DNA of 64,000 nt from the NCBI GenBank assembly GCA_022703055.1, contig JAKLEP010000002.1, positions 22,247 through 86,246 of the forward strand, written 5' to 3'. The notes under the pieces are model-generated. The model had not been told where the DNA came from. It worked only from the letters and a program-made list of their open reading frames with translations, and did no database searches. The stretch is from Candidatus Omnitrophota bacterium (GTDB lineage: Bacteria > Omnitrophota > Gorgyraeia > VGKH01). This document shows, in pieces, positions 3,525 through 53,420 of this stretch. The position numbers and the translations under genes were made by a program. Within the stretch, counting starts at the first letter, position 1, and the number at the start of each line of letters is the position of its first letter.

Positions 3525-4008
3525 AGGAATTTTTAATTATGGATTTTATAATGTTGGTTGTGGAATATCCTTTAAGATACGGTATAATCTGGACTCTTCC
3601 TCCGTAGGACTCGACAATATCTTTTCCTACCACGTCGTCCTTCTTCCAGTCTCCGCCCTTTACAATAATATCGGGTTTCAGTTTTGAAATTAACTTTAAA
3701 GGGGTTGGCTCATTAAAAATAACGATATAGTCGACGCTGGCAAGTGAGGCCAATACGCTTGCGCGGTCTAACTCATGATTGATAGGCCGATTCTTATCTT
3801 TCTTTAAACTTCTTACTGAGCTGTCGCTGTTTAATCCGACAACCAAACAATCTCCCAGCTTCTTTGAATCTTCTAGATATTTTGCGTGCCCGTAATGCAA
3901 AATATCAAAGCATCCGTTGGTAAAAACCACGGTCTTATTCTTCTTTTTTAAACTCGAAAGCACTCTAGATAAGGCTTCCAGAGTCTTAACTTTATTATTA
4001 TTTTCCAT
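3508..4008 (-). CDS. D-beta-D-heptose 1-phosphate adenylyltransferase (RfaE/HldE domain II, cytidylyltransferase fold)
   Basis: VVFTNGCFDILHYGHAKYLEDSKKLGDCLVVGLNSDSSVRSLK is the HxGH nucleotidyltransferase signature of RfaE domain II; 166 aa. Confidence 0.75.
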   Translation of the reverse strand: MENNNKVKTLEALSRVLSSLKKKNKTVVFTNGCFDILHYGHAKYLEDSKKLGDCLVVGLNSDSSVRSLKKDKNRPINHELDRASVLASLASVDYIVIFNEPTPLKLISKLKPDIIVKGGDWKKDDVVGKDIVESYGGRVQIIPYLKGYSTTNIIKSIIKNSCGKSR

Positions 4009-4010
4009 GA

Positions 4011-4574
4011 TTATATCTGTTTCTCGACGAGTTCGCAGATTATATGCCCGATTGTGATATGCGTCTCTTGAATCCTGGCAGTTACTTTTGAAGAAACGAT
4101 CAAGCTGACATCGGCTGTCTTGGCAAGCAAACCGCCATCTACGCCAGTAAGACCTACCGTCTTTATGCCCATTTCCTTGGCTTTGTTTATACCTGCAATA
4201 ACATTTTTAGCTTTGCCACTGGTTGAAATACCTATAACTAAATCTCCCTTTTTGGCGATAGCCTCGATTTGCCGGGAGAATATTTCATCAAAGCCGTAGT
4301 CATTACCGATTGCTGTTATTATCGAACTATTAGTCGTGAGCGCAATAGCAGCTAAACCACCACGTTCTTTTTGAAATCTCCCCACTAATTCCGCTGCGAT
4401 GTGTTGGCTATCAGCAGCGGAACCGCCATTGCCAAAAAGAATTATCTTATTTCCATTCTTGAGACAATCAATCGCTATCTCCGCAATTTTTACAATCTCG
4501 TCAATATTGTTTTTTATTATTGACTCTTTTACCGCAATCGAATCTTTGATAATATTGGTTATTTCGTTTTTCAT
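4011..4574 (-). CDS. gmhA: Phosphoheptose isomerase (SIS domain)
   Basis: 187 aa; ILFGNGGSAADSQHIAAELVGRF and the GISTSGKAKNV SIS motif. Confidence 0.8.
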   Translation of the reverse strand: MKNEITNIIKDSIAVKESIIKNNIDEIVKIAEIAIDCLKNGNKIILFGNGGSAADSQHIAAELVGRFQKERGGLAAIALTTNSSIITAIGNDYGFDEIFSRQIEAIAKKGDLVIGISTSGKAKNVIAGINKAKEMGIKTVGLTGVDGGLLAKTADVSLIVSSKVTARIQETHITIGHIICELVEKQI

Positions 4575-6599: not shown

Positions 6600-7961
6600 C
6601 TATGCCTCCGTTTCCTTCTCTTGTTTGACAAATCTTTCAATAAAGTGTGTGGAGATGTCCCCTTTTATAAACATAGGATCGTCCATAATTTTCAGATGCA
6701 CCGGAACGGTTGTTCTTATCGGCGAGACGATAAGTTCTTCCAGAGACCTCTTCATTTTTCTAATCGCCTCTCTGCGATTGGACCCGTGCACAATTAATTT
6801 CGCCAACAGAGAATCATAATAAGGACTTATGTTATAACCGTTATAAATATGCGTATCTATACGTACTCCTGGGCCCCCGGGAAAATTAAGCCTCTCGATT
6901 AAACCGGGGCAGGGAATGAATCCGTTATCGGGGTCTTCGGCGTTTATTCTGCATTCGATAGCCGAACCGTTAAAATCTATATCGTCCTGTTTAAAGGCGA
7001 GTTTTTCTCCCGCGGCAATCTTGATTTGCTCTTTAACAAGGTCAATGCCGGTCACCATCTCAGTAACCGGATGCTCAACCTGGATACGCGTATTCATTTC
7101 CATAAAATAGAAATTCCCATGTTTATCTAATAAGAATTCTATTGTCCCAGCGCTGCGATAACCTGCAGCTTTAGCGCCTTTAACCGCCAGTTCTCCCATT
7201 TTCTTGCGTAATTTATTATCCAAGGCTGGCGAAGGCGATTCTTCTAAAAGCTTCTGATGACGCCTCTGAATGCTGCAATCTCTCTCGCCCAGATGCACTA
7301 TGCGACCGTAGTTGTCAGCTAAAATCTGAAATTCGATATGGCGAGGATGCTCTATATATTTCTCGATATAAACATCTGGATTGCCAAAAGCCGCCTCCGC
7401 CTCAGCTTGAGCCGTCATCAAAGCACTGATTAATCTTATATCATTATGACAGACACGCATGCCTTTTCCGCCGCCGCCGGCAGCAGCTTTAATTATCACA
7501 GGATATCTTAATCTTTTTGCGATCTTAATGGCATCTTCTTTAGTTTTTACTGCGGAGTGGCTGCCTGATACTATCGGCAGACCTGCCTTGCGCATAGTCT
7601 CGCGCGCAGCCATCTTATCTCCCATAAGACGCATGGCTTCAGGGTTTGGCCCGATAAAAGTAATATTGCAGGATTCGCATATCTCGACAAAGTGGGCATT
7701 TTCAGCTAAGAAACCGTATCCGGGATGGATTGCTTCAACGTCAGTAATTTCTGCGGCAGATATTATGGCGGGGATATTCAGATAGCTCTCAGAACTAGCG
7801 GCCTTTCCGATACAAATTGCCTCATCGGCAAAACGCACATGCAAGGAATCCTTATCGGCCTCAGAGTAGACAGCGACTGTCCTTATATTCATTTCCTTGC
7901 AGGCACGAATTACCCGAAGGGCTATTTCACCTCTGTTAGCGATTAGGACTTTAGAAAACAT
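6600..7961 (-). CDS. accC: Acetyl-CoA carboxylase biotin carboxylase subunit
   Basis: 453 aa; [26 protein letters not shown]…, ATP-grasp motifs, [14 protein letters not shown]. Confidence 0.9.
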
Positions 7962-19723: not shown

Positions 19724-20149
19724 TTAAACTAAAAAGTAAAAAGAAAAAAGTAAAAACCAAAAGGCAAAAGTCAAAAGTCTTCTCCGATTCTCTTTCAGGG
19801 TTAAGATGCTCGAAGCTAAAATATTCGATAATTCTGTGGTCTCATTTAAAAGCTCTGTTATATTCTCGAACGGACCTTCGATAGAATCCCTAATTAACTC
19901 TAGCCAAAATTTACTCTCATTAGCTGATTTGAGAGCGTGGCGATAAAAATTAGAGAAATCTTTTTTAGAAGCAGAAACTTGAGCTTCTATAATATTAGCA
20001 CCAACAGAAGTTGCTGAACGTAAAAGCTGCTGAGCCATCACTTGCGATATATAGTCTTTAGGGATGCTTCTAAGAAACTTGATTATATCTGCGGAGTAAA
20101 GATAGCTTCGTTTTCTTAAATTATAAACCTTATTCTTTTTCTCTTCCAT
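19724..20149 (-). CDS. Four-helix-bundle protein (TIGR02436 / 23S rRNA intervening-sequence protein family), copy A
   Basis: …QLLRSATSVGANIIEAQVSASKKDFSNFYRHALKSANESKFWLELI… family signature. The C-terminal approximately 19 aa (NRRRLLTFAFWFLLFSFYFLV) are read out of the flanking AAAAGTAAAAAG repeat. Confidence 0.8.
   Translation of the reverse strand: MEEKKNKVYNLRKRSYLYSADIIKFLRSIPKDYISQVMAQQLLRSATSVGANIIEAQVSASKKDFSNFYRHALKSANESKFWLELIRDSIEGPFENITELLNETTELSNILASSILTLKENRRRLLTFAFWFLLFSFYFLV
19730..19779. repeat. Left terminal inverted repeat of four-helix-bundle cassette A
   Basis: AAAAAGTAAAAAGAAAAAAGTAAAAACCAAAAGGCAAAAGTCAAAAGTC is the imperfect reverse complement of 20150-20200. Confidence 0.6.
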
Positions 20150-20681: not shown

Positions 20682-22316
20682 TTATGGCTGCTGAATAACT
20701 TTATTATTTAAACAGCGGGATAAATATCCGCCGGTCAAAGCATCAATTGAGGCCGTCAGCTCTTCTAATCTCAAGGTCTCATCCAGCCTTTCGCTTGCCT
20801 CTTCAGGAGGTGAGATTAGAAGCTCTGTCTGAAGCCGACGGCGCTCAAAGTACAATCGTGTTACTTCATCTAAAATTGACTCCCTTAGTTCAACCATTAA
20901 TTTAGAACGGGAATCTATAGATGTCTGGTCCGGATTCCAAATCAGCTCACCCACATCCCAGCTTAATGACAATCCCCAATCCCTCGGACCAACAAATGCC
21001 CTTTCGTAGCTAGAAGATAGAGACGTTGCCACAGTCTTATCGTAATCTAAACTTACTGACGGCATAAGAGCAGCAAGCTGCGCGCGCCTGCGCCAGCTTT
21101 TTATTTTCCGTGGATCAACCTCTGCGTATCTTATCGCCTGTTTCTGGATTTCCTGAATAGAGGGCTCGTCCTTAAATACTTCTTGAGTATTTTTTTGCTC
21201 GTCTCGTTTCATTGCAGGTAAATCCCGGGACGAGCCCCTAAACACTCCTTCATCAGTTGCAGCCCAAAGATTCCTAGAGGAGTCCGTGGCTAGGAAATTA
21301 ATATTATTAGCGGTCATTCCCTTATAAAACTGTTGCCATTTACCACCGTTAAATTCAAAAACACCTTTTTCTGTACCAACAACTAAATTATTATTATCTA
21401 GAAATTGAATACATTTTATATTCTGACTTAACAATCCTCCTGAATTTAATCTCTGCCAGGATTCGCCGTCATCTTGGGAATAAAACAAACCTTCATCTGA
21501 GCTAAAATAAATATTACGAGAGTTCTTGTGATCGATTTTAATATCGGTTATGCGTGATGTTCCTTTTGATTCTTCGGCTGCATAATCGCTATCGCCATTA
21601 TTATTTTCCGGGCTCTCTTGGCCTGTTATGGAATATAATTTATCTTGTGAATCTAAATCCGAGCTTAAAACATATACGCCTTCGATAGTGGCGAGAAAAA
21701 TCTGCTCTGCGCCTGCGGCCATAGCGATAATTTCAATGGTGCCAAGCTTCCCTGATAATCTATCCCAAGTCTTGGCATTATCCCTCGTAAAAAATAATCC
21801 TTCTTTGGTGCCAAGAAGGATTATATCTTTAAGAATCAAAACCGTTTTGCAATAACGCTGCATTTCGTTTTTACCGCGAAAAATATTCTGCCAGCTTTTC
21901 CCCTCATTTCGGCTGATGAATAATCCATCGGCGGTCGCAGCGAATATATCCTGCGGGCAAGATCTATCTTGCGCAAGGTAATTAACTCCTCCAGATTTTG
22001 GAATATTTAGAATCTTCTTATAATATTTCCCCTGGTCATTTGAAACATAAAGAGCGCGGTCAGTACCGACAAAAAATTGATTCCTATCCTCAAAATCAAA
22101 TAATATACATTTAACATTCTTTTCCCTTAAGCCATCGGAAGAATCCTGCCATAAAATATTACTATCGGAACGGGTTATTACTAATAAACTTAAAATAAAA
22201 ACAAAGATATAGACAATGCCAGAAAGCAACCTATTATGTTTGAAATTTCGAATTGCAAACTTAAAAGTCAAAAGGAAAAAGTAAAAAGCACAAGTTAAAA
22301 TTAAAAAGTTTTTCAT
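20682..22316 (-). CDS. Membrane-anchored beta-propeller protein (BNR/Asp-box or Reg_prop-like repeats) with an unknown C-terminal domain
   Basis: 544 aa; repeated …G(K/E)(S/T)W(Q/D)…L… motifs (GKSWQNI, AKTWDRL, GESWQRL, LWAATDEGVF). The annotated N-terminus is encoded by the inverted-repeat DNA of cassette B, so the real start is probably internal. Confidence 0.55.
   Translation of the reverse strand: MKNFLILTCAFYFFLLTFKFAIRNFKHNRLLSGIVYIFVFILSLLVITRSDSNILWQDSSDGLREKNVKCILFDFEDRNQFFVGTDRALYVSNDQGKYYKKILNIPKSGGVNYLAQDRSCPQDIFAATADGLFISRNEGKSWQNIFRGKNEMQRYCKTVLILKDIILLGTKEGLFFTRDNAKTWDRLSGKLGTIEIIAMAAGAEQIFLATIEGVYVLSSDLDSQDKLYSITGQESPENNNGDSDYAAEESKGTSRITDIKIDHKNSRNIYFSSDEGLFYSQDDGESWQRLNSGGLLSQNIKCIQFLDNNNLVVGTEKGVFEFNGGKWQQFYKGMTANNINFLATDSSRNLWAATDEGVFRGSSRDLPAMKRDEQKNTQEVFKDEPSIQEIQKQAIRYAEVDPRKIKSWRRRAQLAALMPSVSLDYDKTVATSLSSSYERAFVGPRDWGLSLSWDVGELIWNPDQTSIDSRSKLMVELRESILDEVTRLYFERRRLQTELLISPPEEASERLDETLRLEELTASIDALTGGYLSRCLNNKVIQQP
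22263..22308. repeat. Left terminal inverted repeat of four-helix-bundle cassette B
   Basis: AAAGTCAAAAGGAAAAAGTAAAAAGCACAAGTTAAAATTAAAAAG is near-identical to the reverse complement of 22682-22731. Confidence 0.65.
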
Positions 22317-22681
22317 CTCTTTCCTTTCAGACTCAAAATGCTTGCAGCGAGAATATTGGATAATTCAATTGTTTCATCAGAGATTATTTTAGTTTTATCA
22401 AAAGGGACTCTATGAGAATCTAAAAGCAAAGAAAGCCAGAATTTGCTTTCATTTGCAGATTTTAATGAATGGCTATAAAAATTAGTAAAATCTTTTTTGG
22501 AACTTGAAGCTTGAGCTTCAATGATATTGGCACCTATTGATGTTGCGGAACGAAGAAGTTGCCTGCCAATTATTATTGAGATGTAGTCTTTGGGTAGATT
22601 TTCGATAAAATTTATAATATCAAGCGCATATAGGTAAGTGCGCTTTCTTAAATCATAAATTTTATGTCTTGGCTCTTCCAT
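22313..22681 (-). CDS. Four-helix-bundle protein (TIGR02436 family), copy B
   Basis: 122 aa; …RQLLRSATSIGANIIEAQASSSKKDFTNFYSHSLKSANESKFWLSLL…; paralog of copy A. Confidence 0.8.
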   Translation of the reverse strand: MEEPRHKIYDLRKRTYLYALDIINFIENLPKDYISIIIGRQLLRSATSIGANIIEAQASSSKKDFTNFYSHSLKSANESKFWLSLLLDSHRVPFDKTKIISDETIELSNILAASILSLKGKR

Positions 22682-22902: not shown

Positions 22903-23010
22903 TAACTTGCTGCCTTTCTCCCGTGGACGCTTGGAAGTATAGCATGTATTTGATTATTTGTCAAGGTTGATTTGCGTAAAAGTTAAATTATTATTCAGTG
23001 TAATTATTAT

Positions 23011-23033
23011 AACTTGTTAGTAATTAACAAGTT
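23011..23033. promoter_or_regulatory. Candidate operator: 9-bp perfect inverted repeat AACTTGTTA-gtaat-TAACAAGTT upstream of the XRE/cupin regulator
   Basis: Perfect palindrome about 50 nt upstream of a TTGACA(23083-23088)-N17-TAATCT(23106-23111) promoter-like element and the AGGAGG RBS of the regulator. Confidence 0.4.
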
Positions 23034-23143
23034 GATAAAATTGACCAAAAAATGAAATATTTTTTGTTTATACAATTTAGACTTGACAATTCATCAATGC
23101 TATGTTAATCTTTAGATTAGAAAAACACTTCAGGAGGAATAAG

Positions 23144-23695
23144 ATGAAAATCGGAGACAGGATTCGAGAATTAAGAAAATCGCGCAAGATGACGCTGGTG
23201 GAATTATCACAAAATAGCGGCGTGCAGCTTGCAACTTTGAGCCGTATTGAGAACCTCAAGATGACCGGCACCCTCGATTCCCATATCAACATCGCCAAGG
23301 CGCTGGGAGTTAATTTAAGCGAGCTATACAAAGACATCGGAGTTGAAGAAAAAACTATAGATGTCCAATCGCAGGACTCAAGAAGCGAAGTATTCTTGCA
23401 CAGCGATAAAGCAGCTTATGAGATGCTCACCAACAAGGTACTTGAGAAGAAAATGATGCCTATACTTTTAAAGATTGAACCTCAGGGCAAGACCCAGCAA
23501 GAACAAAATAATCTCGGCACGGAAAAATTTATTTTCTGCCTGGAAGGAAAAATCGAAGCAGTGATAGATAATAAAAGCTCAATACTGAGCAAAAATGCCA
23601 CGCTCTATTTTGATGCATCCCTCCCCCACTATTTTAAAAACTTAGGAAAGACCAAGGCGCTGGCGATATGCGTGATTACGCCACCGGCATTGTAA
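23144..23695 (+). CDS. XRE-family HTH transcriptional regulator with C-terminal cupin domain
   Basis: Start chosen at MKIGDRIRELRKSRKMTLVELSQNSGVQLATLSRIEN (HTH_3), preceded by AGGAGG. The C-terminal half has a cupin-like beta pattern. Confidence 0.8.
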   Translation: MKIGDRIRELRKSRKMTLVELSQNSGVQLATLSRIENLKMTGTLDSHINIAKALGVNLSELYKDIGVEEKTIDVQSQDSRSEVFLHSDKAAYEMLTNKVLEKKMMPILLKIEPQGKTQQEQNNLGTEKFIFCLEGKIEAVIDNKSSILSKNATLYFDASLPHYFKNLGKTKALAICVITPPAL

Positions 23696-23714
23696 TAGGA
23701 GGTCAAATGACGAC

Positions 23715-24077
23715 CGAACTTATGGAGTTTGAAAAACGACATAAGTTCGTAGTCGGAATTTGACCCAGCACTAATTTTATGAATATATATTGGATTTATA
23801 TCTTAAAGAACAAAAATACTGGAGAGCCTTATTACGGATATACAAATAACTTAGACAGGCGTTTAAAAGAACATGATATTGATAATAAATGGAAATTTAT
23901 TGGTTGTGAAGGTTATGTCTCCGAATTAGATGCTAGGGAAAGAGAAAGAAAATTAAAACATTATGGTCAAGCACGAACCCATCTTAAGAACCGGCTTAGA
24001 AAATCATTCCAATAGTAAAATTAGTGCTGGGTTCAATTCGCCCAAGCGACTTATGTTCACTTTGTTCCATAAGTCGC
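23715..24077 (+). mobile_element. Hairpin-bracketed GIY-YIG mini-cassette (putative selfish/homing-endonuclease-like insertion)
   Basis: Layout: left hairpin CGAACTTATG-(15 nt)-CATAAGTTCG at 23715-23749; a 16-18-bp perfect inverted repeat ACCCAGCACTAATTTT / AAAATTAGTGCTGGGT abutting the start (23763-23778) and stop (24017-24032) of the GIY-YIG ORF; right hairpin GCGACTTATG-(12 nt)-CATAAGTCGC at 24046-24077. Confidence 0.45.
23779..24015 (+). CDS. Small GIY-YIG nuclease-domain protein (UPF0213/YhbQ-like)
   Basis: 78 aa; IYWIYILKNKNTGEPYYGYTNNLDRRLKEH matches GIY-x10-YIG…R…E. Confidence 0.75.
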   Translation: MNIYWIYILKNKNTGEPYYGYTNNLDRRLKEHDIDNKWKFIGCEGYVSELDARERERKLKHYGQARTHLKNRLRKSFQ

Positions 24078-24098
24078 GGGCTCATTGAAGGAGGAAAA

Positions 24099-24455
24099 AT
24101 GCCTAAATATAAGATTTTGATCTGTGATGATGAACTGGGTATCAGAGAATCACTAAAATTAATTTTAGAGAAGGATTATGAGATCATTGAAGCTACTAAC
24201 GGCAAAGATTGCCTGGAGAATTTAAAAAACAATCCCGTAGATTTAATCTTAATGGATATCAAAATGCCCAAGGCCAGCGGACTGGATATCCTAAAAGAAA
24301 TCAAATCAATTAATCCCGCCATAAAAGTAATCATGATCACAGGCTACAAGTCGGTCGAAACAGCGACAGAAGCCATCCGCGCCGGAGCTAGCGATTACAT
24401 CGTCAAGCCATTTTCGTCTAAGGATGTCTTGGAAGCAATTCGGAAAATCCTCTAA
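24099..24455 (+). CDS. Stand-alone response-regulator receiver domain (CheY-like)
   Basis: Start at MPKYKILICDDELG after a GAAGGAGG RBS. Phospho-acceptor context LILMDIKMP and the T/K motifs. Confidence 0.8.
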   Translation: MPKYKILICDDELGIRESLKLILEKDYEIIEATNGKDCLENLKNNPVDLILMDIKMPKASGLDILKEIKSINPAIKVIMITGYKSVETATEAIRAGASDYIVKPFSSKDVLEAIRKIL

Positions 24456-24504: not shown

Positions 24505-24891
24505 ATGAAACTACAATCGTATAAAGACCTCATTGTTTGGCAAAAATCCATAGAGCTGGTTATAGAAATTTATAATCTTACCAGATTATTCCCTAAAAGC
24601 GAAGTTTACGGATTGGTTTCTCAAATGAGGCGAGCTGCCATAGCTATTCCTTCTAATATCGCTGAAGGATATCGCAGAAAACACATAAAAGAATATATCC
24701 AGTTCCTCTACGTAGCAAATGGCTCAGCTTCTGAACTTGAAACACAAATTGATATCGCTAGAAAATTAGAAGAAACAATAGATTTGGATTATTCGAAGTG
24801 CGATAATTTAATTGCGGAAGTCTTAAAGATGTTGAACGTGCTGATTGCGAAACTTGAAACTAAACGCTACCCCCTCCACCCTATACCCTGA
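24505..24891 (+). CDS. Four-helix-bundle protein (TIGR02436 family), copy C
   Basis: 128 aa; …VSQMRRAAIAIPSNIAEGYRRKHIKEYIQFLYVANGSASELETQIDIARKLE… family signature. The stop lies 1 nt from the stop of the convergent HD-GYP gene. Confidence 0.8.
   Translation: MKLQSYKDLIVWQKSIELVIEIYNLTRLFPKSEVYGLVSQMRRAAIAIPSNIAEGYRRKHIKEYIQFLYVANGSASELETQIDIARKLEETIDLDYSKCDNLIAEVLKMLNVLIAKLETKRYPLHPIP
24876..24890. repeat. Right inverted repeat of four-helix-bundle cassette C
   Basis: CCACCCTATACCCTG lies inside the last codons of copy C and pairs with 24486-24504. Confidence 0.5.
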
Positions 24892-35293: not shown

Positions 35294-35319
35294 TAAACTT
35301 CCCCCTTCAATGAGCGCAT

Positions 35320-35339
35320 CCTTGACAAGCTTGTCAAGG
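35320..35339. promoter_or_regulatory. 20-bp perfect palindrome CCTTGACAAGCTTGTCAAGG upstream of coaD (operator-like, contains TTGACA)
   Basis: The sequence equals its own reverse complement; lies 27-46 nt upstream of the coaD start. Confidence 0.4.
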
Positions 35340-35354
35340 ATTTGCGCGAATTGA

Positions 35355-35407
35355 ACCCCGCCCTTTCTTACTGCGAAGCATAACTGCCGCACAAGAAAGG
35401 GCGGGGT
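35355..35407 (-). other. Strong stem-loop (15-bp perfect stem, 23-nt loop) between rsmD and coaD
   Basis: ACCCCGCCCTTTCTT…AAGAAAGGGCGGGGT; not followed by a U-tract on either strand. Confidence 0.4.
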
Positions 35408-35435
35408 CAAAATTCGACTGACAAACTTACGTTCA

Positions 35436-35999
35436 CTATCGTTCCGTAAATTTGGGCCTCATTTGATAAAAAGACACTAGCGTGTCTCCGTATTTCTTTT
35501 GTTTAAAAAGCTCTAAACTATCTGTCTTTTCAGGAATTATATCTTTTTTAAAATGCTGAATTATTACCAAACCAGAAGGATTTAATATATCACAAGAGCC
35601 TAAGCTTAGCAAGGATTTTTTCGCCAATTCTTGATAATATGGCGGATCTAAGAAGATAATGTCAAACTTTCGTTTTGACTGGGCAAATTGTTCGATAGCC
35701 GAGAAAGCATCTTTGGGTAAAACCTCGTAATTAACAATATTAAGCTTGGAAAGATTATCTTTTAAAATAGCAAGGGATTCGCGGTCGTTTTCCACAAACC
35801 AAACATTGGCTGCGCCGCAAGACAAAGCCTCAATGCCGACTGCCCCGGAGCCGGCGAATAAATCCAGAAACTGGACGCCAACAATAGCCTCGCCCAAGAT
35901 ATCAAATACGGCTTTTCTGGTCTTGTCCTGGGTAGGCCTTAAGCCCAGCTTGGGACTTTTTAAAAGCCGACCCTTTAGTTTTCCCGTTAGTACTCTCAT
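35436..35999 (-). CDS. rsmD: 16S rRNA (guanine966-N2)-methyltransferase
   Basis: 187 aa; FLDLFAGSGAVGIEALSCGA… and the FLDPPY motif. Confidence 0.8.
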   Translation of the reverse strand: MRVLTGKLKGRLLKSPKLGLRPTQDKTRKAVFDILGEAIVGVQFLDLFAGSGAVGIEALSCGAANVWFVENDRESLAILKDNLSKLNIVNYEVLPKDAFSAIEQFAQSKRKFDIIFLDPPYYQELAKKSLLSLGSCDILNPSGLVIIQHFKKDIIPEKTDSLELFKQKKYGDTLVSFYQMRPKFTER

Positions 36000-50284: not shown

Positions 50285-50333
50285 AAAACTAATATTTCAA
50301 ATAACTACTTTGCGAAAAAAGACCTTTAAAAGT

Positions 50334-53308
<2,975 letters not shown>

Positions 53309-53420
53309 CTTGACCACAAATAAAAACCGTCTTTTTCCGCTATATGTAGTTATCAAAGAACCAATCGCAAAGTTACGTGCGAATAAAATTCTTTCTAAAA
53401 GATCTCTTTATGATAATTTC

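Follow-up and report, generated by a model that had tools for sequence, protein, structure and literature searches.

A minimal GIY-YIG gene in the loop of an invariant palindrome, nested in a hairpin-rich repeat family of Omnitrophota

Intervening sequences (IVSs) of 23S rRNA genes loop out a small open reading frame (ORF) by a long stem formed from flanking inverted repeats. They are inserted in transcribed, structured RNA regions and occur sporadically in relatives. Classical rRNA IVSs are removed by RNase III, and GIY-YIG ORFs in the rRNA genes of the candidate phyla radiation (CPR) sit in non-intron insertions (PMC11270868). GIY-YIG homing genes, such as those of I-TevI, I-BmoI, and the T4 Seg proteins, encode a catalytic core in which Tyr, Arg, His, and Glu residues are conserved, and display a selfish presence/absence pattern. 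Here we describe a 386-bp element that shares features with both systems. It lies in a 64,000-nucleotide stretch of a Candidatus Omnitrophota genome (assembly GCA_022703055.1, contig JAKLEP010000002.1, positions 22,247 to 86,246), hereafter the window. The element carries a 78-aa GIY-YIG gene in the loop of a perfect palindrome, is bounded by two hairpins, and is inserted at the Shine-Dalgarno sequence of a response-regulator gene. The gene may be a homing-type mini-nuclease gene nested in a mosaic hairpin repeat, which spreads by cutting ORF-less palindromes; this is the reading that we tentatively prefer.

The stem around the small ORF and the insertion into transcribed regions are those of an IVS. 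A 44%-identical GIY-YIG relative is itself IVS cargo, and four-helix bundle (4HB; 23S_rRNA_IVP) cassettes of the same layout adjoin the element. Unlike an IVS, the element of the window is placed at an mRNA operon junction between protein-coding genes, and the large subunit (LSU) rRNA gene of the window (50332-53315) has no large insert. Its stem is sequence-invariant across loci and not site-specific, and it possesses two extra terminal inverted repeat (TIR) hairpins and a large ORF-less family. Like GIY-YIG homing genes, the element gene encodes the conserved catalytic residues and interrupts a sequence that is uninterrupted elsewhere. In contrast to I-TevI-type enzymes, the protein has no linker or DNA-binding domain. 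The gene is not accompanied by a self-splicing intron, and its candidate target is not a conserved host gene but a palindromic repeat that is dispersed. The best sequence and fold matches of the protein are UPF0213/YhbQ (COG2827) and Slx1. It lacks the RING domain and the Slx4 partner of Slx1, and, unlike UPF0213/YhbQ, it is not encoded by a single-copy syntenic gene.

Other repeats share the general layout. In repetitive extragenic palindromic (REP) sequences, bacterial interspersed mosaic elements (BIMEs), and REPtrons, as in the present family, inverted hairpin repeats flank a central motif or gene, intergenic copies are numerous, and mosaic modules combine the same hairpins with different centers, the structure being kept while the sequence varies. 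Unlike REPtrons, the protein linked to the element is a GIY-YIG protein and not an HUH/Y1 REP-associated tyrosine transposase (RAYT), and the hairpins are ~60 nt long with conserved internal loops. REP sequences usually lie 3' of genes, whereas copies of the element lie strictly just 5' of start codons. The Correia elements of Neisseria and the enterobacterial repetitive intergenic consensus (ERIC) or intergenic repeat unit (IRU) sequences are also small TIR elements without a known transposase, found in transcribed intergenic regions near gene starts and forming long RNA hairpins. The present family differs from them in that some members carry a conserved protein gene, in its three hairpins, in its phylum, and in having no known sequence similarity to them. 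The generic features of miniature transposable elements with inverted repeats (MITEs), namely small size, TIRs, and many non-coding intergenic copies, apply to the ORF-less relatives and not to the protein-coding copy of the window. An integron gene cassette was rejected, as the inverted repeat brackets the ORF instead of lying 3' of it and the copies are isolated inside operons; no integrase is encoded by the genes adjoining the element, the whole window not having been scanned for IntI.

Anatomy of the element and its empty sites

The GIY-YIG ORF is enclosed by the inverted repeat ACCCAGCACTAATTTTA / TAAAATTAGTGCTGGGT, which abuts the ATG and the TAG (Table 1). The original prediction had recognized this arrangement with an arm length of 16-18 bp; the repeat is perfect over 17 nt. 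A search of the 64-kb window for the 17-nt arm with up to three mismatches returns these two sites only, at an expectation of 0.19. The start codon of the ORF is base-paired inside the 17-bp central stem, and the ORF lacks a Shine-Dalgarno sequence of its own.

The A and B hairpins flank the central stem on the outside. The inner stems first reported are present (CGAACTTATG/CATAAGTTCG at 23715-23749 and GCGACTTATG/CATAAGTCGC at 24046-24077), but the two near-identical hairpins described then are each ~60 nt long, and the right one is an inverted and not a direct copy of the left one. In each, an outer stem is followed by a 2x2 internal loop and a 4-bp stem, and then by a 2-nt bulge and an inner stem of 10 bp. 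At this full extent the B hairpin directly abuts the AGGAGG of the response-regulator gene, instead of lying about 20 nt upstream of its ribosome-binding site as had been supposed. Folded as DNA, the A hairpin reaches -20.8 kcal/mol (z = -8.3) and the B hairpin -16.0 kcal/mol (z = -5.2); folded as RNA, the whole element region forms three adjacent stems (z = -5.8). Hairpins and 17-nt arms together constitute TIRs of ~78 nt, identical in 59 of 83 aligned columns. The ends differ in their signatures, which are outer sequence TCAAATGAAG and foot GAATTTGA at the A end, and foot TTCAATTCG and outer sequence GCTCATTGAA at the B end.

No promoter or terminator was found on the + strand of the element and no + strand terminator after it, and a promoter-like cluster is present only upstream of the XRE-cupin gene, at 22967-23061. 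The element is thus transcribed within the operon of the XRE-cupin and response-regulator (REC) genes. Coupling of the nuclease gene to a leader peptide was considered, with the ATG in the conserved TCAAATGA end after the left AGGAGG as its start. The frame ends in an ATGA that overlaps the nuclease start in L003 and L004, but stops elsewhere in the window, L008, L068, and L113, and a conserved coupling frame was therefore rejected.

Table 1. Coordinates of the GIY-YIG element, its flanking genes, and a second scaffold element in the window
Feature	Position	Strand	Remarks
Whole inserted element, 386 bp	23703..24088	+	A hairpin, central stem, GIY-YIG ORF, central stem, B hairpin
Left AGGAGG direct repeat	23697..23702	.	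Host Shine-Dalgarno sequence; homology to the empty site stops here
A-end hairpin	23701..23765	+	Outer sequence TCAAATGA, foot GAATTTGA, GA/GA internal loop, 2-nt bulge, inner stem CGAACTTATG/CATAAGTTCG
Left arm of central stem, ACCCAGCACTAATTTTA	23763..23779	+	Includes the A of the ATG
78-aa minimal GIY-YIG nuclease gene (predicted)	23779..24015	+	Pfam PF01541
Right arm of central stem, TAAAATTAGTGCTGGGT	24016..24032	+	Begins immediately 3' of the TAG
B-end hairpin	24032..24089	+	Inverted copy of the A hairpin; foot TTCAATTCG, outer sequence GCTCATTGAA
Right AGGAGG copy	24089..24094	.	Serves the response-regulator gene (ATG at 24099) as Shine-Dalgarno sequence
Upstream host gene, XRE HTH + cupin	23144..23695	+	Pfam
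Downstream host gene, single-domain response regulator	24099..24455	+	Pfam PF00072, E=2.5e-32
Second, ORF-less hairpin-scaffold element, between rsmD and coaD	~35303..35468	-	nhmmer hairpin profile, E=1.5e-12

Orthologous junctions were retrieved by a metagenome scan with the upstream XRE-cupin protein; all loci compared in this study come from metagenome-assembled genomes (MAGs) or metagenome assemblies. In L135, whose XRE-cupin protein and response regulator are 90% and 91% identical to those of the window, the junction TAATAAGGAGGAATTATG contains no ORF, no hairpin, and a single AAGGAGG. In a split local alignment of the two loci, with flanks 83.5% identical, the left homology ends at 23702 (…TAAT-AGGAGG) and the right homology starts at 24088 (AAGGAGGAAAAATG). 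A global MAFFT alignment of the filled and empty sites misplaced the gap and was replaced by the split alignment. From these breakpoints, the insert spans 386 bp between two AGGAGG copies and is a discrete insertion into the Shine-Dalgarno region of the response-regulator gene. Two independent assemblies of an Omnitrophota MAG contain this protein and locus.

Since the empty site has no hairpin, both hairpins are part of the insert and excision would leave none. This contradicts the earlier suggestions of a duplicated palindromic target and of an excision that leaves one hairpin behind. Empty junctions do exist in relatives, as the search for them had been meant to reveal, but without a single hairpin left there. 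Four more orthologous junctions (L138, L141, L143, and L145) are short and lack both cassette and hairpin, which makes insertion the parsimonious direction. The orthologous junctions of L137 and L140 consist of 50- and 66-nt spacers.

A second pair of filled and empty sites is found between NuoB and NuoC. In L221 and L224 the two genes overlap or abut directly. In L004, NuoB terminates in the TGA of the TCAAATGA sequence of the element, and the ATG of NuoC follows immediately after the B end. Both pairs (window and L135; L004 and L221 with L224) display presence/absence polymorphism at conserved sites, as is the case for homing endonuclease genes. A general target-site duplication was rejected: left flanks often resemble a Shine-Dalgarno sequence, the match between left flank and right junction varies by copy, and automated end-calling is noisy.

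The original prediction compared the hairpins to the subterminal hairpins of IS200/IS605 elements. The element shares with them hairpins near both ends, a strongly strand- and orientation-specific placement, and, in several copies, a left flank that resembles the right end. It could be expected from these features to be a single-strand transposon of the IS200/IS605 or REP/RAYT type, or an insertion in a duplicated palindromic target. The likeness breaks down on the defining features. The only ORF of the element is the GIY-YIG gene, its neighbors encoding XRE-cupin, REC, and 4HB proteins, and no HUH/Y1 transposase (TnpA) is present. The hairpins are inverted copies, as in TIRs, and not same-strand structures, and the empty site is devoid of a hairpin. 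The element measures 386 bp in all. IS200/IS605 elements insert 3' of a fixed tetra- or pentanucleotide without target-site duplication. On this point the copies give no uniform picture: AGGAGG stands on both sides of the window copy as a 6-bp direct repeat, and other copies vary. Such a transposon is barely credible here.

The junction of the XRE-cupin and REC genes is a hot spot, at which orthologs hold different cassettes or nothing. A 4HB cassette occupies it in L134, L136, and L142, a GxxExxY-like one in L139, and a DUF559-like one in L144, each co-oriented and with its own inverted repeat. In the window, three 4HB (23S_rRNA_IVP / TIGR02436) mini-genes are present at 19724-20149 (-), 22313-22681 (-), and 24505-24891 (+). 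Their inverted repeats are long, imperfect, and made of simple motifs (19730-19756/20149-20180, 22284-22300/22688-22704, and 24488-24499/24878-24889). The architecture said to be common to the GIY-YIG element and the 4HB cassettes is so in the placement of an ORF in an inverted repeat; the 4HB cassettes have no twin hairpins. The predicted N terminus of a 544-aa BNR-repeat protein (20682-22316, MKNFLILTCAFYFF…) is encoded by the inverted-repeat arm of the adjacent 4HB cassette (22284-22316). This protein was called at 515 aa in another assembly, and its true start probably lies further downstream.

A mostly ORF-less repeat family at gene starts

The whole unit is found at at least 10 unrelated loci. 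The ORF occurs in ten different genomic contexts, one contig holding several copies (P0003 and P0045). Its homologs form 89 protein clusters of 72-104 aa; of the clusters with a source name, nearly all are from Omnitrophota. Eight Omnitrophota loci encode proteins that are 58-88% identical and lie in unrelated operons; the arms and flanking hairpins are common to all. The homologs lie between the genes for NadE and PqqD, NuoB and NuoC, CoaE and Rho, SurA and PolX, aspartate kinase and a LeuA-like protein, and two GT2 proteins, and all are co-oriented with the next gene.

At the DNA level, one genome per species was scanned for the exact 15-mer CCCAGCACTAATTTT, and the family counts given here are among the matches listed. 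About half of these come from Omnitrophota (or PVC-labelled) MAGs and have the paired inverted arm, while the rest are single chance matches in other phyla. Paired arms are present in at least 32 Omnitrophota-labelled MAGs, several of which contain at least five copies. Among the matches listed, ~45 loci are ORF-less and 10 carry the ORF. The motif search beyond the window thus recovers a family of paired arms and hairpins in other Omnitrophota loci, in keeping with the mobile cassette first proposed. Viral contigs scanned for the arms contain 61 single matches and no pair, which argues that the element is not phage-borne.

The ORF-less copies measure ~150-260 bp, and their arms enclose loops that fall into four size groups (5-8 nt, ~17-26 nt, 49 nt, and 71-75 nt). 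At four further loci the loop is 235-246 nt long and is occupied by the GIY-YIG ORF in three and by other cargo in one (L056). That the ORF-less loops are deletion remnants of the ORF was rejected, as blastn-short detects no similarity to the ORF and the 71-75-nt and ~22-nt loops form families of their own. The ~71-75-nt cargo recurs in place of the ORF as the central loop of nine copies (L067 6453-, L074 4184-, L079, L080, L090, L086, L075, L098, and L121), and some contain TTGAAA…TATAAT-like strings. L067 and L074 belong to the same MAG; their cargo is 92% identical and their hairpin stems differ. The cargo of L056 (2314-2589) is 246 nt of non-GIY-YIG sequence between the same arms, with no clear ORF and a truncated B hairpin.

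The placement of the copies is uniform. For 17 copies that could be scored, an ORF of 60 aa or more begins 1-17 nt past the B end and is oriented outward, and in every scorable copy the B end lies 0-17 nt 5' of the start codon of a co-oriented gene. The B junction often reads …CATTGAA followed by GGAGG-N5-8-ATG, and sometimes the ATG directly adjoins. The A-type ends yield no more than one or two ORFs, TTG-initiated and of doubtful significance (L113 and L076). The nuclease gene itself reads from A to B, in the direction of the downstream host gene, in all 10 ORF-bearing loci.

The hairpins and the central stem are separable. The window contains a second element (Table 1) with the hairpin scaffold and a different central stem, CCCCGCCCTTTCTT / AAGAAAGGGCGGGG, whose B end is followed by GGGGGAAGTTTAATG and the coaD start. 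The listed rsmD ORF (35436-35999) extends 9-10 codons into a hairpin of this element, and the C terminus of rsmD is probably element-derived. Scaffolds with other central stems and no GIY-YIG gene are also present in L068, L008, L029, and L138, and further stem classes in other loci are CCCCCACACCAATT, CCCTTGACA…, and TCCCGCAAAACA. The scaffold is common among Omnitrophota genomes and modular relative to the central stem. Elements of the CCCCCACACCAATT class lie within 1.5-3 kb of a GIY-YIG element in L008 (4597-4700) and L068 (4030-4215), and this stem is conserved between these two different MAGs.

Conversely, the central palindrome occurs without the scaffold. In L073, a CCCAGCACTAATTTT hairpin (7613-7647) is inserted inside a cobalamin riboswitch aptamer (7480-7707), and in L085 two such hairpins (3746-3797 and 4313-4364) each lie next to the 3' end of a tRNA gene, at a distance of 3-4 nt. 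A scaffold hairpin begins immediately after a tRNA in L097 (~1845). In L087 and L130, from Parcubacteria and Sungiibacteriota, the central palindrome has 1-3 changes in one arm and is flanked by unrelated hairpins, GCCCATTTCGC…GCGAAATGGGC, and the CPR locus L225 has the ORF and the stem without A and B hairpins. The sequences of L087 and L130 suggest that the core module has spread across phyla. Within the loci sampled here, the GIY-YIG gene goes with a single central palindrome (the CCCAGCAC class) and not with the scaffold.

Searches of Rfam, with the window at gathering thresholds and the element region at E up to 10, returned nothing relevant to the element. The protein has no match in PHROG or PADLOC, and NCBIfam yields only a sub-threshold match to a group I intron endonuclease. 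No description of the element was found in the literature, the only related report being that of GIY-YIG ORFs in CPR non-intron rRNA insertions (PMC11270868). The hairpin-rich repeat family is apparently undescribed, and the element is covered by none of these catalogues, in support of the earlier surmise that standard IS catalogues lack its kind.

These observations bear on whether the whole composite is an autonomous transposon, with the GIY-YIG protein acting as a structure-specific transposase on hairpin TIRs and the ORF-less copies, those with other central stems among them, being non-autonomous, MITE-like, and mobilized in trans. The insert defined against L135 is a complete unit with ~78-nt TIRs and a 6-bp direct repeat, both hairpins are present in all Omnitrophota ORF copies, and ORF-less copies outnumber ORF-bearing ones among the matches listed. 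The near-pure Watson-Crick stems and the equivalence of the A and B ends when read outside in would fit recognition at the DNA level. Slx1, the nearest solved fold after UPF0213, cuts branched DNA. However, scaffolds with other central stems have no associated GIY-YIG gene in the loci examined, and the CPR combination of ORF and stem dispenses with the hairpins. Copies within one MAG have strongly diverged stems, with no sign of a recent burst, and the direct repeat is not evident at many copies. The GIY-YIG protein is the only protein linked to the element, no IS transposase family being found among the neighboring genes of the examined loci, and we know of no GIY-YIG transposase in prokaryotes. 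We regard such a transposon as unlikely, though far from negligible. A new class of prokaryotic element, with a 78-aa GIY-YIG transposase, hairpin TIRs, insertion at ribosome-binding sites or start codons, a MITE-like superfamily in Omnitrophota, and a palindrome in common with CPR, is to the same degree doubtful.

The GIY-YIG protein and the constraint on its palindrome

The 78-aa ORF matches Pfam PF01541 with E=2.9e-9 and 37.5 bits (cutoff 22.6). Its AlphaFold2 model (pLDDT 92) adopts a beta-beta-alpha-beta-alpha fold (E4-11, E17-22, H25-35, E38-46, and H49-77), in which a catalytic core is followed by one long C-terminal helix, with no separate DNA-binding module. Y7, Y18, Y21, R53, and R55 are invariant among homologs, and G20, R27, R28, H32, and E56 are at least 90% conserved; E44 is also among the invariant or near-invariant residues. 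By sequence signature and core fold the protein belongs to the GIY-YIG superfamily, and cleavage activity is predicted. The best matches in the PDB are UPF0213 (1ZG2, sequence E=3.3e-7, and 1YWL) and the Slx1 nuclease domain (TM 0.63-0.67), while I-TevI and UvrC match more weakly. The Omnitrophota proteins lack the ~10-residue 'GxGAKYTR' segment of UPF0213.

A relative of 81 aa (P0088), 44% identical, is located inside the 23S rRNA gene in L219 (1124-1369) and L220 (1501-1746). The Rfam LSU match in L219 spans 424-2869. A long perfect stem surrounds the gene of this relative, which is preceded by a GGAGG of its own. From its sequence context this relative is an IVS that bears a predicted nuclease, in agreement with the report of GIY-YIG ORFs in non-intron rRNA insertions (PMC11270868).

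Between ORF copies, dN/dS is 0.04-0.14 and dS ranges from 0.85 to saturated, indicating that the protein is maintained and that the copies diverged from one another long ago. Despite near-saturated or saturated synonymous sites, all 10 ORF-bearing loci have identical 15-nt arm cores. Because this set includes copies found via the protein, the identity is not an artefact of searching with a DNA pattern. A copy from Taylorbacteria (CPR), with 55% protein identity, has one compensated double change, in which ACTTATTTT is paired with AAAATAAGT. The identical cores and this compensated change show that the arms are constrained both at the nucleotide level and in their pairing.

The same data address the possibility that the ORF has no part in the spread of the element, being either passive cargo or a UPF0213/YhbQ-like nuclease of the repair type that serves the cell. 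The best sequence and structure matches do belong to the uncharacterized UPF0213 family, and purifying selection on the ORF is strong. A conserved YhbQ ortholog would be expected at a syntenic position; instead, the gene occupies ten contexts, in one case with several copies on a contig, and is absent from the close relative L135 and from the orthologous junctions in L138, L141, L143, and L145. It always resides in the same invariant palindrome, even across phyla. Close homologs in unrelated operons and the empty orthologous XRE-cupin/REC junction bear out the original view of a mobile cassette distinct from housekeeping YhbQ, and passive cargo or a purely cellular role is very doubtful.

The outer hairpins are conserved as structures. 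Over 38 aligned modules, which align as one family when the A and B hairpins are read outside in, 97.8% of the cells of 19 base pairs are paired, compared with 21-36% in slid controls. Compensatory double changes are present in 14 of the 19 pairs, with 173 double-change cells against 46.8 ± 6.1 in shuffles. G:U cells, few in number (~9), are no commoner than A:C cells (~6), and a sense-strand RNA signature, sought as an excess of G:U on the transcribed strand, was not found (strand counts 32 and 31). Stability favors the sense orientation for the A hairpin and the antisense orientation for the B hairpin. This symmetry suggests, though not decisively, a DNA inverted repeat that pairs on both strands or is homogenized at the DNA level, and not a single functional transcript.

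These features weigh on a role at the RNA level, in which the hairpins would be retained by the host as intercistronic or 5'-UTR modules for processing or stability (for example RNase III or other nuclease sites with protective hairpins), the protein would bind or cleave the invariant stem in numerous transcripts and so define a regulon, and mobility would be ancient and incidental. Consistent with such a role, every scorable copy has its B end 0-17 nt 5' of the start of a co-oriented gene, and the copies are found only in transcribed contexts, namely operon junctions, a riboswitch loop, tRNA trailers, and, for the relative, rRNA. The element has no terminator, its start codon is sequestered in a stem, and the insertions are old, with saturated dS, yet show purifying selection on the ORF and invariant arms. 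The stems of classical rRNA IVSs are substrates of RNase III (PMC11270868). Against it, G:U pairs are rare (~1-3%) without a sense-strand excess, and the opposite strand preferences of the A and B hairpins are those of DNA TIRs rather than of one transcript. Presence/absence between close relatives argues against an essential role, and Rfam contains no match. All GIY-YIG enzymes characterized so far act, to our knowledge, on DNA. A host-retained RNA module is quite unlikely on balance.

A proposed route of spread and its meaning

The GIY-YIG gene of the window copy is probably a selfish, homing-type gene, to judge from its sequence and surroundings. What we infer beyond the observations above concerns nuclease activity, its target, homing, and the way in which the scaffold moves. 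The element consists of two nested layers. The first is a mosaic palindromic repeat composed of a hairpin, a central stem-loop, and an inverted hairpin, which resides in transcribed DNA with its B end before a start codon. The second is a minimal Slx1/UPF0213-like GIY-YIG gene placed exactly in the loop of the invariant palindrome CCCAGCACTAATTTT / AAAATTAGTGCTGGG. The nuclease would recognize and cut ORF-less copies of this palindrome, in duplex form or extruded as a hairpin. An ORF-bearing copy would then serve as the template for repair, by which the gene is copied into the cut ORF-less copy, and the gene, once in place, would split its own target. This would be homing after the pattern of endonuclease genes borne by introns, inteins, and rRNA IVSs. 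The host may tolerate such insertions since the element has no terminator and the downstream Shine-Dalgarno or start region is kept or duplicated, and since the start codon of the nuclease gene is locked in a 17-bp stem without a Shine-Dalgarno sequence of its own.

Several points weigh against homing. Unlike I-TevI-type enzymes, the 78-aa protein has no separate DNA-binding domain, and its activity and target are putative. The arms offer only ~17-30 bp of homology for gene conversion. The insertion in the window may have come in as one composite, which suits a transposon at least as well as homing, and precise excision from L135 is conceivable in place of insertion. The AGGAGG direct repeat is clear in the window copy alone; it is inconsistent among copies and not resolvable in the NuoB/NuoC pair. 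The scan with an exact 15-mer biases both the copy numbers and the apparent invariance of the arms in ORF-less copies. The invariance of the arms could also arise from a role of the RNA in cis, for example in autoregulation or processing.

On this reading, the elements also matter for annotation. They lengthen or shorten neighboring ORFs, as for NuoB in L004 and rsmD in the window, supply stop or start codons, and occupy ribosome-binding sites, and thereby bias gene calling and the operon models built for Omnitrophota and CPR MAGs. The identity of the arms at a time when synonymous sites are saturated points to a strong and so far unexplained constraint at the nucleotide level.

If homing into palindromes is correct, the element would link rRNA IVSs with small ORFs, free-standing homing nucleases, and REP- or MITE-like repeats, which are mostly considered apart, under a common scheme, in which a selfish mini-gene is hidden in a hairpin that is tolerable to the host transcript. 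The scheme would also provide a testable origin for the spread of IVS-type cassettes, a question that has been open since their discovery. A very small nuclease of 78 aa with a candidate 30-nt palindromic target would be attractive for biochemistry and possibly as a tool.

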